Sequence record: MW882907
Reading direction: 5' to 3' (one strand)
Source: Escherichia phage vB_EcoM_SQ17
DNA length: 64,000 bases
This document shows positions 12,051-62,252 of this stretch, piece after piece. Position 1 is the first letter of the stretch, and each line of letters begins with the position of its first letter. The translations under genes and the position numbers were made by a program. A model generated the notes under the pieces. That model ran no database searches, was not told the origin of the DNA, and saw only the letters and a list, made by a program, of their open reading frames with translations.

Positions 12051-12797
12051 TTAACCTTTAATCAGTTGGAATAATGATGCGCTAAGTGGTAAGCCACGTT
12101 TCAATTTTAATTTACCAATGAAACCAATCTTTTTAAAACGTTGCAGACCTTGGATAACTTTATCATATGTATCGAAAAGCGATTCAGCGTCAGTTAATTT
12201 AGTTTTAGTTTTCCAGTCAGAGCCTTTAAGAAGAACGTTGAGTTTAGTAAGTTCATGGCCTTCTGCTTGATGTGAGCCATTAATGCGTGCTTTCAAAGCA
12301 ACAATTCTAAGTTTAGATTCGTTAGATAAAGGTTGATTTTTCATCATGTTTGCCATATGCTTAACACGATTTTCACGTTTTGCTCGGATTTTTAAAATAG
12401 TACCATAAACCTTTTTAATTTGGGCCCATTTCTTCTCGTCGAGATTAAGTTTCTCTACTTTACGGGCAGAAGGATTAGCGATACGTCTTGCAATGGCATC
12501 ACGTTTCTCAATAAGTTCTTCTAATGTTAAATCAGAACGAGCCGTGTTATATTTTTTCTTAACTGGGATAACATTACCTTTAATGTAGCCGATATCATTA
12601 TTAAAACGTTCTAAGGATAATTTCTCACCTTCAACAGAGTTATTAAAAGATTCACCTGAGTAAGCGCAGACCTTTTGATCAAGAATGTTTTTAAGGTAAT
12701 TAAAGTCTAAGTTAAAATCCTTAGAGCGTCTCTTCGCAGAAGCTCTGGTGTGGTCAAGACGACGATTGATTTTGTTAATTTTATTATTTGACAACAT
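12051..12797 (-). CDS. basic hypothetical protein; Srd-like by size and position
   Basis: 248 aa, Lys/Arg-rich; T4 carries srd (about 251 aa) between dda.1 and modA; sequence identity not verified; weak HNH-like LERFNNDIGYIKGNV pattern noted. Confidence 0.4.
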   Translation of the reverse strand: MLSNNKINKINRRLDHTRASAKRRSKDFNLDFNYLKNILDQKVCAYSGESFNNSVEGEKLSLERFNNDIGYIKGNVIPVKKKYNTARSDLTLEELIEKRDAIARRIANPSARKVEKLNLDEKKWAQIKKVYGTILKIRAKRENRVKHMANMMKNQPLSNESKLRIVALKARINGSHQAEGHELTKLNVLLKGSDWKTKTKLTDAESLFDTYDKVIQGLQRFKKIGFIGKLKLKRGLPLSASLFQLIKG

Positions 12798-12949
12798 AAT
12801 ATTTTCCTCTGTCTTACGGACGTTAGGTCATTTAGCTGATAAGCTTATAATATCATGCCCTCAGGTAGTGTACACTCTTTTTTCATAAAATGCTTTAATT
12901 TTTTATGTGTTATAATGGTTCTGAGTTCCATCCGGTTATTCCAATTCAG

Positions 12950-13558
12950 TCAGTAACTGACAATAGACAGATTCCAGATTGTATAACGTCCATCTTGAAT
13001 AATAGAATCTACACGCAGTGTAGTCCCTATAGGGAGCATAAATTCACATTCGTCAGATATAAGTCTAGCATTAGACCGTCTTGTCGCTTCAGGGAAAGCT
13101 CCATTGAACTCACAAGATGGTGCAGCCAGAATCATATTAAGCATATGTTCACGGAAGTTGAAAGCAAATGGTGCATCTTTGATGCAGAACATATTAAATG
13201 TTCCGTAAAAATTATACGAAGCAAAGTTACGTGCTACACCGAACACTGGGCTGAAGCTCATTACTCTGTCAAATTTAATAATACTACCAATACCTTTATC
13301 ATCGAGTGTGGCCATAGTTTTCTTAGAGATTCCACGATACATTGTCTCAGGAACAGAAGACGTCCAATTTCTACGAACGATTGAACTTAACTCCTGTTGA
13401 ATACAGTCTGGCTTGTTTTCCATACACTGCCACAGTACACTTTGTTCAATGTCGCTGAATTGACTATCAATTTCGTACTGCAATACATCTTGATATTCGG
13501 GGTTTTGAGCACGACGAACCATTTCTTCAATTTCACACTCGTTATACGGCATAAACAT
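12950..13558 (-). CDS. modA: ADP-ribosyltransferase, ModA/ModB family (ModA position)
   Basis: 202 aa; paralog of the adjacent ORF; conserved YRG arginine motif and S-x-S region typical of R-S-E ADP-ribosyltransferases; ATG at 13556-13558 preceded by CCAGAGGAGAA. Confidence 0.6.
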   Translation of the reverse strand: MFMPYNECEIEEMVRRAQNPEYQDVLQYEIDSQFSDIEQSVLWQCMENKPDCIQQELSSIVRRNWTSSVPETMYRGISKKTMATLDDKGIGSIIKFDRVMSFSPVFGVARNFASYNFYGTFNMFCIKDAPFAFNFREHMLNMILAAPSCEFNGAFPEATRRSNARLISDECEFMLPIGTTLRVDSIIQDGRYTIWNLSIVSY

Positions 13559-13615
13559 TTAGGTTTCTCCTCTGGTTGATAAAAGTATAGTATCATCGTC
13601 GGTAGAGTTTGTACA

Positions 13616-14197
13616 CTAAAAATTCAACATTTTTAAATGAATGATTTTGTATAACCGAGATAAAGGGTCATATTCTAAGTCTTCAATTTCCACAATCTCA
13701 AATCTAGAGATACCTGAGACCATGTACTCTTGTTCAGATTCAATCATATCTAGGACGTCAACACGCTTTTCTTCCATAACATGCTTAGGGTTCTTCCCGG
13801 CAAGTACAATGTTAACCATGTTTTGGTAGTAATCAAAAATGAATGGAGCATTCCTGAGACTAAGAATAGTGTACGTCTGATATTCCCATCTCCCAGAGAA
13901 TTGACGAGCTGTACTGAAATCAGTTGTGAACGATGTTACTCGTCCAGGAGACCAATGACATCCAACAGAAAGAAGGGAAAGACGTTCTACTTCTTCTGGA
14001 GTTACACCACGGTAGAGTTCTACTGGTACTGTAGAAGTCATATGCTTACGAACAAGATGGTCTAATTCATAGTGGAAATCCGGGTCTTCCTTAGAATCGG
14101 TGCAAGCCCAGAGAATGTTTTGTTCTTGGCGGGTGAATTTGCTATCAATCAGATTTGTTAGGTATTCGCGTTCTTGAAGTTCAGATTGACATGTCAT
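13616..14197 (-). CDS. modB: ADP-ribosyltransferase, ModA/ModB family (ModB position)
   Basis: 193 aa; ELYRGV and FSTARQF motifs; paralogous to 12950-13558; A versus B assignment is positional only. Confidence 0.6.
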   Translation of the reverse strand: MTCQSELQEREYLTNLIDSKFTRQEQNILWACTDSKEDPDFHYELDHLVRKHMTSTVPVELYRGVTPEEVERLSLLSVGCHWSPGRVTSFTTDFSTARQFSGRWEYQTYTILSLRNAPFIFDYYQNMVNIVLAGKNPKHVMEEKRVDVLDMIESEQEYMVSGISRFEIVEIEDLEYDPLSRLYKIIHLKMLNF

Positions 14198-14413
14198 GAT
14201 AGACCTCCATTTAAAGATAAGCCTATCATAACACGAGAGGAGGGAATGTAAACTACTTTTTAAGCTTTCCTACTAAAGGTCCATCAGGACCAGGTTGTTC
14301 TAACATGAATAAGGATGCTTTAAAAAGCAATGTCAACCCTTTCACCATTCGATACCATGTCTCAAAGTCTTTTTCCTTGATTTCTAGTAAGAATTTCTCT
14401 TTAAATTTCTCTT

Positions 14414-14602
14414 TCATTTCCAAGGACTCCATGGTGGAGGGTCGTCATAATAAGAGGCAAGGTCTTTCAGGGCTTCAACAGGTAAACTAAAGCCGTGACG
14501 TTGTATAATACTATCTAGTTCATCAACAAGTTCACTACGATGCACTTTAGGAGCCTCAACTTCAGGCTCATCAAACATACTCATCAAGTCCATATTATTC
14601 AC
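14414..14602 (-). CDS. hypothetical protein
   Basis: 62 aa acidic ORF in the array. Confidence 0.4.
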   Translation of the reverse strand: MNNMDLMSMFDEPEVEAPKVHRSELVDELDSIIQRHGFSLPVEALKDLASYYDDPPPWSPWK

Positions 14603-15059
14603 CGAGATAAAAACTAGCAGGTTCAGAGAATGTTTCTAGTGCTACACCTTTTGTCTTAAAAAATTTCCAAATAGCCCGTTGCAAGTGGATTAAATCTGCT
14701 AATGATGTAATAAAGTATTTTTTGGCAAAATACTTATGGTCTCGCTTTTCAAACAAGTCTAAACGCTTTTCAGGATTCACATAAACTGCATTTTCCGTGG
14801 ATTCATAACCTAAGTCCTTTATGCCTTCTTCAAGACTAAACGGAGAATTTTTAGAATGAGTAATAGCTCCAACTCGCTCTACACGAATTTTGTAACCTTT
14901 AGGAATCTGCAATTTGCAGAATTCTTCTACGATATATTGCGGATTATTTAGACTTTTGTTAATGAGAATAGCTATTTCTAGTGGAGTCTTATCTTCCACT
15001 GGTATATGTTTAAATGACTTGGCTTCAAGCAAATACATTTTAAATAGCATAGCATCCAT
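14595..15059 (-). CDS. hypothetical protein (mrh region by position)
   Basis: 154 aa ORF; positional analogy to T4 mrh only. Confidence 0.45.
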   Translation of the reverse strand: MDAMLFKMYLLEAKSFKHIPVEDKTPLEIAILINKSLNNPQYIVEEFCKLQIPKGYKIRVERVGAITHSKNSPFSLEEGIKDLGYESTENAVYVNPEKRLDLFEKRDHKYFAKKYFITSLADLIHLQRAIWKFFKTKGVALETFSEPASFYLGE

Positions 15060-18615: not shown

Positions 18616-19275
18616 TTAACCTCGATTCATAAATGCATTAAATATTTGGTCATCAACAGAAATTTCTAATTCGACTTCAATTGCTTCAGCCTTTTCTTCA
18701 GGTGGTAATTCGTATCCACACACTACAATTTTTTCATCGATATCAAAATACACAGAAGCAATATGATTAATGTTATTTTCGGTTAAGTCTAAATCAACAT
18801 CAACATCTTTTTGACCTACACTTAAAGGATAACTAATACGGGTTATTTTATTATCTTTAACAAAGAGTCCACCAACATACTCTGTACTACGTTTGAAGTT
18901 TACACGTTTCCGAAATGAAAGATATGATGCATCTTTACCGTGAGCTCGGCTCATAGGACATAATGAATAACTAGAATAAGAGATGTCAAATCCTACACCT
19001 TCAATATGAGCCAACGTGTCATGATTAAACCAATTATAATCATATGCCAAATCCATTATATTGTAATATGTGAAAGGCACCGGATTAACATCATATGTTG
19101 TACCTTTAAAATCTGCCCAGGCAACGATTTCGTTATCTTTAACAATTACAAAAATTACACCAATATGATATCCGTTATTATTTTCATTCGGCGTTATATT
19201 ATAACATTGTGCATTAGGAAATTTACCATATTTAAATGGCGCATTTTTGTGCATATAATAAATCATATTATTCAC
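18616..19275 (-). CDS. hypothetical protein (61.2 position)
   Basis: 219 aa ORF. Confidence 0.5.
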   Translation of the reverse strand: MNNMIYYMHKNAPFKYGKFPNAQCYNITPNENNNGYHIGVIFVIVKDNEIVAWADFKGTTYDVNPVPFTYYNIMDLAYDYNWFNHDTLAHIEGVGFDISYSSYSLCPMSRAHGKDASYLSFRKRVNFKRSTEYVGGLFVKDNKITRISYPLSVGQKDVDVDLDLTENNINHIASVYFDIDEKIVVCGYELPPEEKAEAIEVELEISVDDQIFNAFMNRG

Positions 19276-20373: not shown

Positions 20374-20562
20374 TTATTGAAAATCTGCTTCGAAAACTTT
20401 CTCGTCATTAACAAATGCTTTAACTAATGCGTTGTTCACTTCAGCAAGTTGTACCGTAACCCACTCGATTTCTTCGCGATCACCTGATAACATGATATCT
20501 TTAGTGAACATCTCACCGCTTTTAAACCAACCGATAAAAGTAACTTTAGTTAATTTGTTCAT
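20374..20562 (-). CDS. dmd: Dmd, antitoxin against RnlA/LsoA mRNA endoribonucleases
   Basis: 62 aa; VTFIGWFKSGEMFTKDIM ... NNALVKAFVNDEKV matches remembered T4 Dmd (gene 61.5). Confidence 0.8.
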   Translation of the reverse strand: MNKLTKVTFIGWFKSGEMFTKDIMLSGDREEIEWVTVQLAEVNNALVKAFVNDEKVFEADFQ

Positions 20563-20876
20563 ATTTCCTCACAAAATGCCCATTCAGCGTGATAAACTGT
20601 AGCACCTTTAGTATTATTCATTTGAACTACGTCTACCGGAGAAATTACTCGATAGAGACGTGGTTCACCTCCATAAGAGCGTGCTGCTCGTCCTGCATAA
20701 ATCTTTGCTAAACCGATATCTTCAGTAAAGAATACACGATCCAAGTTTTTCTTACGTCCGGTTTCAGACAGAACTCCTGTTTCCTCAGGAGGACAAAGCA
20801 TGTTTTCGATGTTAGCTGAACTACTTGAACCGTGATAAAAAATCTTAAATTCTGCTTTACAATCGATGGTTTTCAT
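20559..20876 (-). CDS. hypothetical protein
   Basis: 105 aa; contains FYHGSSS motif; ATG preceded by CCAAGAGGAGAA. Confidence 0.5.
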   Translation of the reverse strand: MKTIDCKAEFKIFYHGSSSSANIENMLCPPEETGVLSETGRKKNLDRVFFTEDIGLAKIYAGRAARSYGGEPRLYRVISPVDVVQMNNTKGATVYHAEWAFCEEI

Positions 20877-61260: not shown

Positions 61261-61463
61261 TATTCTTCTACATGTTGTTTACGACCTTTCTTATCAATAA
61301 AGGTATATTCAACGAATGTTCCGATGTAGTCTTTATCTACATCATGTGGACTATTAATTGGGCATTTAGTACGGCAAATGCGTTCCCATTGACGAATAAT
61401 TACTGCCTTATTCTTTGGGTCATATGGATGTGGATAATGTATATTCATAATAATGGTTCCCAA
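61236..61463 (-). CDS. hypothetical protein
   Basis: 75 aa ORF. Confidence 0.4.
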   Translation of the reverse strand: MGTIIMNIHYPHPYDPKNKAVIIRQWERICRTKCPINSPHDVDKDYIGTFVEYTFIDKKGRKQHVEEYCLKVTWL

Positions 61464-61942
61464 TCAACAATCACAATTTCTAGTTTAGTGGAATACGTAT
61501 CTAAAATCTCTTCGATGATATCCCAGTTTCCGCCACCGATACCTGCACCAATTCTTGGCATATAAATTACAGGCTTTGTTATCTTATTCTTTCCGAATTC
61601 ATTTAATTCTATTATACAATTCATTAAAGCAGAGTACTCAAAATTAGGTCCTGGCTCAAACTGTGTATAAAGATTAAAGCAATAAGCTTTATGTGTCTTA
61701 AAATATTTTTCATAAACCGAATAAGTCCCGAGTTTAGACTCGTCTCCGAATTCGGTTTGAAGTTTATCGGCTTCCAGAATTTTTGGATAAGCCTTTGCTA
61801 ATTGTCCTGCCACACCAGCGCCCATTGTATGAAAACAATTACACCCATGAGCGATATTATTACCTTTAGAAAACAGGGCGACAATATCGCCCTTGATATA
61901 GTTTTTAATCACTTGCTGCAAGTCCTCTAGTATAAGAGTCAA
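61445..61942 (-). CDS. macro-domain protein (ADP-ribose binding or hydrolysing)
   Basis: 165 aa; HGCNCFHTMGAGVAGQLA and RIGAGIGGGNW match macro-domain signature blocks. Confidence 0.6.
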   Translation of the reverse strand: MTLILEDLQQVIKNYIKGDIVALFSKGNNIAHGCNCFHTMGAGVAGQLAKAYPKILEADKLQTEFGDESKLGTYSVYEKYFKTHKAYCFNLYTQFEPGPNFEYSALMNCIIELNEFGKNKITKPVIYMPRIGAGIGGGNWDIIEEILDTYSTKLEIVIVDWEPLL

Positions 61943-62252
61943 CTAGGCGGTCCACCATAGAATTGCATGCTGCCTTATCTTTAGGTTCCGCCACCGAGCA
62001 TTCTAATATTTGCCATTTTTTATAGTATCTTTTAATTAAGGTAGACGCCTTGAACCTACTAGACGCCCCATCTTTTTCTCCGTCTTTATACGCATATAAC
62101 AATTTTTGTGAAAAATCTACTTTACACTCTTGACTTTTACCACAATAATCAGACGCTGTTCTGTTTGTATACTCCGTTACATCAGTATATGTAGTATTAG
62201 CAAGAGCGTTAAATGAAACCAAGCCAACTATTAAAGCCAACATTTTGGTCAT
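61905..62252 (-). CDS. secreted or periplasmic protein
   Basis: 115 aa with N-terminal signal peptide. Confidence 0.45.
   Translation of the reverse strand: MTKMLALIVGLVSFNALANTTYTDVTEYTNRTASDYCGKSQECKVDFSQKLLYAYKDGEKDGASSRFKASTLIKRYYKKWQILECSVAEPKDKAACNSMVDRLVDSYTRGLAASD

Follow-up and report, generated by a model that had tools for sequence, protein, structure and literature searches.

A 64,000-nucleotide stretch of the genome of Escherichia phage vB_EcoM_SQ17 (sequence record MW882907), hereafter the window, harbors at positions 12950-14197 two adjacent genes that are, with a probability that we estimate at about 0.85, the Mosigvirus orthologs of the T4 early genes modB (13616-14197) and modA (12950-13558). 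According to this reading, both encode single-domain C3/VIP2-like mono-ADP-ribosyltransferases (ARTs) of about 200 amino acids (aa), carrying the R-S-ExE catalytic set and playing T4-like roles, and a macro-domain gene located elsewhere in the window forms part of a different module. The analysis demonstrated homology, completeness of the catalytic set, fold and synteny; activity and targets are taken over from the T4 enzymes. The region consists of exactly two minus-strand open reading frames (ORFs) separated by 57 bp, the upstream one coding for a protein of 193 aa and the downstream one for a protein of 202 aa.

Homology with the T4 Mod proteins

The two proteins are paralogs (BLASTP, 33% identity over 147 residues, E 1e-26), and each of them matches phrog_832, "RNA polymerase ADP-ribosylase" (E 1.5e-37 for the 202-aa protein and 5.1e-38 for the 193-aa one), as well as T4 ModA and ModB. 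A preliminary description of this DNA had proposed, from the letters and the ORF translations, a pair of adjacent ModA/ModB-type paralogs at these positions, and the comparisons bear this out. In addition, PF26816 is the precomputed Pfam domain on database homologs of both proteins. In BLASTP, the 202-aa protein matches T4 ModB with E 2e-33 (106 bits) and T4 ModA with E 5.7e-20 (70.5 bits); the corresponding values for the 193-aa protein are E 2.7e-27 (89.7 bits, 37.5% identity) and E 1.5e-9 (41.6 bits). The similarity spans the whole single domain of about 200 aa in both window proteins, and, against a family profile, T4 ModB reaches 170 bits and T4 ModA 100 bits. Judged from the sequences, the resemblance to ModA and ModB is beyond chance.

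The family was found by tblastn in 1078 phage records, and an exhaustive profile search retrieved 127 clusters (at 50% identity), including ART modules embedded in proteins of 1000-4000 aa. According to tblastn, two copies are present in Tequatrovirus, in Mosigvirus and in phages whose homologs are about 55-58% identical (e.g., IME281 and vB_EcoM_FB), and a single copy is present in several T4-like phages of Klebsiella, Serratia and Enterobacter. Sequence searches of the PDB with both proteins returned noise only (such as nucleophosmin, Cas9 and trigger factor, with E of at least 0.016); no structure of a close relative has been solved.

Catalytic residues and predicted structure

The catalytic positions were located on alignments of the window proteins with T4 ModA and ModB, extended with 22 database homologs and with 66 family members. 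In the 202-aa protein they correspond to R75-G76, S101-F102-S103 and E170-x-E172, and in the 193-aa protein to R63-G64, S89-F90-T91 and E155-x-E157; the equivalent residues are R73, S99 and E171/E173 in T4 ModB and R72, S96 and E163/E165 in T4 ModA, the ModA numbering being that of the alignment made here only. The Arg, the Gly and the first Ser are present in all of the 66 family members, and each Glu of the ExE motif in 65 of them. The R-S-E class motifs that the preliminary description had recognized are therefore kept on alignment with ModA and ModB, and no loss of the Arg, Ser and Glu positions was seen. Arginine specificity can be predicted from the motif, which is ExE and not QxE. The Arg column of the window proteins coincides with R73 of T4 ModB, whose mutation (R73A) leads to the loss of both ADP-ribosylation and "RNAylation", i.e., the joining of RNAs capped with nicotinamide adenine dinucleotide (NAD) to S1 and L2 by ModB (PMC10468400); since the column falls on a residue whose replacement inactivates the enzyme, the register of the alignment can be considered valid.

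Most of the codon changes that separate close relatives are synonymous in both genes, even though the comparison has low power. In the 193-aa gene, the ratio of synonymous to non-synonymous differences is 12:4 versus phage JS09 and 8:1 versus phage moskry, and in the 202-aa gene seven synonymous and three non-synonymous differences were counted versus moskry. R75/E172 and R63/E157 are catalytic residues that can be used for mutagenesis.

The AlphaFold2 models, built on 24-sequence alignments, reached a predicted local distance difference test (pLDDT) score of 95.0 and a predicted template modelling (pTM) score of 0.88 for the 202-aa protein, and of 90.2 and 0.84, respectively, for the 193-aa protein. 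In these models, an N-terminal helical bundle precedes the first strand, which carries the Arg; the S-x-S/T motif lies on the next core strand (strand 2), and the ExE motif at a helix-to-strand junction just before strand 5 (the ARTT loop); the predicted layout is the canonical topology of the R-S-E ARTs. When the models were compared with the PDB using Foldseek, the matches with a probability of 1.00 were solely R-S-E ARTs, i.e., C3bot, iota Ia, CDTa, VIP2, Vis, Certhrax, C3larvin, HopU1, XopAI and Tre1, the 202-aa model matching C3bot, CDTa, Tre1 and Vis, and the 193-aa model Certhrax, Ia, CDTa and C3. In the search of viral models (BFVD), the best matches of the 202-aa model were ModB of Serratia phage CBH8 (template modelling (TM) score 0.85) and ModA of Shigella phage Sf22 (TM-score 0.86), and an Alt model was also matched, lower in the list; the Foldseek probability for the viral ModA, ModB and Alt models was again 1.00.

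Probable assignment of the two genes to modB and modA

The comparison of the gene maps revealed that the T4 order modB-modA-srd-dda.1-dda is kept in the window as well as in JS09 and moskry, so that the 193-aa gene stands in the place of modB and the 202-aa gene in that of modA. Downstream of the pair and on the same strand lie srd, which is the synteny anchor common with T4, then dda.1 (Pfam Phage_Y01A) and dda (Dda helicase SH3 domain, E 5e-50), and upstream of it small modA.2-type ORFs and an Mrh-like gene are found; hence, the window pair occupies the conserved T-even position mrh/modA.2 ... modB, modA, srd, dda.1, dda.

A neighbour-joining tree of 66 members contains four clades, namely those of T4 ModA, of T4 ModB, of the 202-aa protein and of the 193-aa protein, each with a bootstrap value of 96-100%. 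A distance-based quartet (four-point) test of the four clades joined ModA with the 202-aa protein and ModB with the 193-aa protein in 457 out of 500 bootstraps (91%). The longest branches are those of T4 ModA and of the 193-aa clade, and the test places them apart; since the two longest branches are not grouped, long-branch attraction does not explain the result. On these grounds, the 193-aa protein is the positional and probable ortholog of ModB, for which score, quartet and position agree, and the 202-aa protein is the positional and probable ortholog of ModA, with the quartet and the position in favor of it and its higher score versus ModB against it. The duplication probably predates the split between Tequatrovirus and Mosigvirus, T4 ModA being the fast-evolving member, and outside Tequatrovirus the labels ModA and ModB are largely positional.

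Proposed function and alternative explanations

In T4, ModA ADP-ribosylates Arg265 of both alpha subunits of RNA polymerase (RNAP), blocking the contacts with the UP-element and with CRP, and ModB modifies translation proteins (PMC2988021). By analogy with T4, the two window enzymes would be produced early after infection and would move ADP-ribose from NAD+ onto arginines of host proteins: the ModA type would act on Arg265 of both RNAP alpha subunits and the ModB type on translation proteins such as S1, with NAD-capped RNA possibly serving as a further substrate of the latter. The outcome would be a reprogramming of both host transcription and host translation in favor of the phage.

Several observations weigh against this reading. 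Both window proteins score higher versus T4 ModB than versus T4 ModA, the identity to the T4 enzymes is just 26-37%, and the deep nodes of the neighbour-joining tree have bootstrap values of 3-20%, which leave the relations among the four clades without resolution. That RNAP alpha is the target of the 202-aa protein is an inference from synteny and from the distance-based quartet test, and the literature examined yielded no biochemistry of Mosigvirus Mod proteins. Moreover, scans of both proteins against Pfam-A (in a set without PF26816) and NCBIfam gave no family. As for Alt, the alignment check that had been suggested in the preliminary description stands for the catalytic residues of ModA and ModB and fails for this third protein, which is not significantly alignable by sequence: BLASTP between T4 Alt and the pair gave no significant match (E 0.43-1.6), and the only match of the family profile on T4 Alt, non-significant, covers 36 residues (E 0.24) and falls on the E-M-E motif of Alt. 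The link between the pair and Alt is thus only structural, as far as the models indicate.

Some of these observations fit a different picture, in which both proteins are active ARTs whose targets do not correspond one-to-one with those of T4. The Mosigvirus pair would then have diverged functionally, the enzyme at the ModA position having targets other than RNAP alpha, either as a second translation-directed or RNAylating enzyme (both proteins being ModB-like) or as an ART dedicated mainly to counter-defence, and the ModA/ModB labels would be positional only. Besides the better scores versus ModB and the four separate clades with poorly supported deep nodes, this picture can draw on the N-terminal motif EQSVLWQCME of the 202-aa protein, which is identical in T4 ModB and absent from ModA, and on the connection of T-even ARTs with defence evasion, Alt and a ModA ortholog of Bas37 having been hits in screens against Mokosh type I (bioRxiv 10.1101/2025.11.20.689424). 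Nevertheless, the quartet test separates the two proteins in the way expected from T4, an outcome that long-branch attraction does not account for, and the gene order is the same as in T4, so that a divergence of targets appears unlikely. If it were true, the window would hold an enlarged ADP-ribose warfare kit, composed of two R-S-E ARTs, AdfA, the macro-domain protein AdfM and, possibly, a 105-aa Arr-like mini-ART (see below); in any case, the question of target specificity in Mosigvirus carries somewhat more weight now that T-even ARTs have been linked to defence evasion. A still more remote idea is that one or both proteins might be catalytically dead pseudo-enzymes retained for binding only. 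It was raised solely for the distance of the pair from T4, no support was found for it, and it is contradicted by the presence in both proteins of the R, S and ExE residues, invariant or nearly so across the family, by the confidently predicted fold, and by the mostly synonymous differences among close relatives; we regard it as the least credible of the explanations considered.

The macro-domain gene and AdfA

The preliminary description had also pointed to a macro-domain protein elsewhere in the window, whose presence was verified: the protein matches Pfam Macro (28.4 bits versus a cut-off of 22, E 1.7e-6), keeps the conserved features of the macro family, weakly matches NCBIfam DarG, and matches macrodomains of the PDB, including those of TARG1 and DarG (5m31). 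The gene is located in the tk-vs block, between tk and vs, and is the ortholog of T4 tk.4. The mechanically called ORF reaches a TTG at 61942 and the homology with T4 begins at a GTG at 61912, a candidate start. With this GTG as the start, the gene would overlap by 8 nt the end of the upstream vs-like ORF. In T4, tk.4 was the single gene required against DarTG2, as found both in a transposon screen and with a clean knockout; it was renamed adfM, and its product was proposed by the authors to strip ADP-ribose from DNA (bioRxiv 10.1101/2025.11.20.689424). Anti-DarT factor A (AdfA) is encoded in the window as well, between a gene 61.1-like ORF and spackle. As judged from these homologies, the window would contain two counter-measures to host DarT DNA ADP-ribosylation, the macro-domain gene and the AdfA gene, which would make up a module of their own directed at DNA ADP-ribosylation of the DarT type.

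The further suggestion that the Mod pair and the macro-domain protein are involved in both the writing and the reading or erasing of the same ADP-ribose marks did not survive the analysis. It can appeal to the presence in the window of ART "writers" together with a macro domain that shows the conserved features of its family. The linkage of the marks to the protein points elsewhere, since the bond formed by the Mod enzymes is an N-glycosidic one between arginine and ADP-ribose, and the hydrolases that reverse it are of the ARH/DraG type, such as the ARH1 used in PMC10468400. No macrodomain is known to cleave arginine-linked ADP-ribose. Furthermore, the macro-domain gene lies 47 kb away from the pair, in a different gene block, without genomic linkage between them, and its product is 84.5% identical to Tk.4, needed specifically against DarTG2 and proposed to act on DNA-linked ADP-ribose, and weakly similar to the DarG macrodomain. 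Because the macro-domain gene is distant, is the ortholog of an anti-DarTG2 gene, and the arginine marks are an ARH-type substrate, a writer/eraser (or reader) circuit is unsupported and we consider it highly improbable. By analogy with Tk.4, the macro-domain gene probably acts against host defence instead of erasing the Mod marks, and its annotation might be corrected by reading it as an anti-DarT2 counter-defence gene.

Gene organization, start codons and promoter-like sites

The features of the window discussed in this work are listed in Table 1.

Table 1. Position of the Mod pair and of the other features of the window.
Feature	Position	Strand	Remarks
srd (Srd anti-sigma factor)	12051-12797	minus	phrog_1400, E 5e-99
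ModA-position gene	12950-13558	minus	ADP-ribosyltransferase, 202 aa; downstream member of the pair
ModB-position gene	13616-14197	minus	ADP-ribosyltransferase, 193 aa; upstream member of the pair
Promoter-like site	14225-14252	minus	TTTACA, 16 nt, TG-n-TATGAT (TGtTATGAT); 27 nt upstream of the ModB-like start codon
Small modA.2-type ORF	14414-14602	minus	Adjoins the Mod pair; matches phrog_1647 (function unknown) only
Mrh-like gene	14595-15059		Upstream of the Mod pair
AdfA, anti-DarT factor A	18616-19275	minus	Pfam PF23813, E 2e-121; PHROG function unknown
105-aa ORF	20559-20876	minus	Just downstream of gene 41 (helicase)
Macro-domain gene (T4 Tk.4/AdfM ortholog)	61445-61912	minus	84.5% identity over 155 aa (tblastn with T4 Tk.4)
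vs-like ORF	61905-62252		Upstream of the macro-domain gene

The 202-aa gene contains two in-frame ATGs, at 13558 and 13552, and both the homologs in other genera and the T4 alignments start at the second Met of the protein. The annotated start may be two codons too long, the ATG at 13552 being the candidate true start. Many GenBank records (e.g., moskry_40) name the small modA.2-type ORF [quoted passage not shown]; evidently, this label is an error that has spread, the phage modA having been mistaken for the bacterial modA.

A consensus scan of the region for promoters and terminators was uninformative overall, its total being at chance level (7 sites versus 6.7 in shuffled sequence). The promoter-like site upstream of the 193-aa gene (read from 14252 to 14225) has 10 out of 12 consensus matches plus the TG of an extended -10, and it is suggestive of a possible early promoter of the Mod pair, of the kind used by host RNAP with sigma-70. 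On the minus strand, the regions 12798-12949 (upstream of srd) and 13559-13615 (between the Mod genes) each contain a TGTACA and a TA-rich -10-like element; the one upstream of srd was also caught by the scan (12874-12847, 9 out of 12 matches with TG), whose total was at chance. In T4, modB and modA overlap by 4 nt, unlike the spaced genes of the window. Since such intergenic elements exist here, in contrast to the overlapping T4 genes, each gene may have a separate promoter in Mosigvirus.

A 105-aa ORF possibly related to Arr

A further ORF, of 105 aa, was found in 609 records of T4-like phages, from those of Escherichia to those of Acinetobacter, Aeromonas and Vibrio, with 60-100% identity. 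Pfam and PHROG give it no function, and sequence and profile searches of the PDB with it were empty; in a few records it is named "putative ADP-ribosyl transferase". Its alignment displays invariant H15-G16 (within a YHG motif), Y60, R63 and E103. Pfam Arr-ms is weakly matched by 3 out of 24 members of its family (best E 0.026), and hhalign of the family versus Arr-3 (a sequence 100% identical to annotated arr-3 genes) places FYHGS on FYHGT over 45 columns, with a probability of 43% and E 2.4e-4. This ORF may encode a minimal Arr-like ART, i.e., a member of the H-Y-E clade to which the rifampin ADP-ribosyltransferase Arr family belongs.

Comparison with known systems

The most distant systems compared are the C3-like and binary-toxin ARTs (C3bot, iota Ia, CDTa, VIP2, Vis, Certhrax and Tre1), which share with the pair the fold (Foldseek probability 1.00, E 1e-5 to 1e-6) and the R / S-T-S / ExE architecture, with an identity of 9-17% and TM-scores of 0.4-0.55. 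Unlike phage early proteins, these toxins are secreted by bacteria and act on eukaryotic or bacterial targets. T4 Alt, a protein of 682 aa that is packaged into the virion, belongs to the same R-S-E clade as the Mod pair, and PHROG 832 groups it with the Mod proteins; unlike the single-domain members of the pair, it is a large multidomain head protein, and a search with T4 Alt did not find an alt gene in the window.

T4 ModA and ModB have been known since the 1990s. T4 ModB (NP_049636, 207 aa), whose targets are S1, EF-Tu and trigger factor for ADP-ribosylation and S1 and L2 for RNAylation, has in common with the 193-aa protein the family, the fold, the R-S-ExE set and the place upstream of modA; the 193-aa protein differs from it in the lack of an insertion of about eight residues (YTYEDTDG) before the ARTT helix and in a shorter N-terminus. 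T4 ModA (NP_049635, 200 aa), which acts on Arg265 of both RNAP alpha subunits, shares with the 202-aa protein the family, the motif and the place directly upstream of srd; their identity is only 30%, and the 202-aa protein has S-F-S and EQSVLWQC where T4 ModA has S-A-S and SEIELLIHC. More in general, the "Mod family of the RSE clade" is listed with the viral ARTs that occur most often (PMC9503650).

The closest systems are those of other Mosigvirus phages, since more than 140 Mosigvirus genomes, including those of vB_EcoM-172859UKE1, JS09 and moskry, match the 3.1-kb region with 98-99% identity, and phage WFL6982 encodes the 202-aa protein at 100% identity. The two genes are annotated as "ModA RNA polymerase ADP-ribosylase" and "ModB ADP-ribosylase" in JS09, by reference to RB69, both as "ADP-ribosylase" in moskry, and as "hypothetical protein" in some other Mosigvirus records. 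ModA and ModB of RB69 (NP_861708/NP_861709), JS09 (YP_009037486/YP_009037485) and moskry (moskry_37/moskry_38) are the same genes, in the same order and with the same lengths, without any substantive difference from those of the window. The pair is therefore already known, being a textbook member of its family annotated in near-identical genomes, so that its value as a discovery is small and its practical value lies in a clean annotation.

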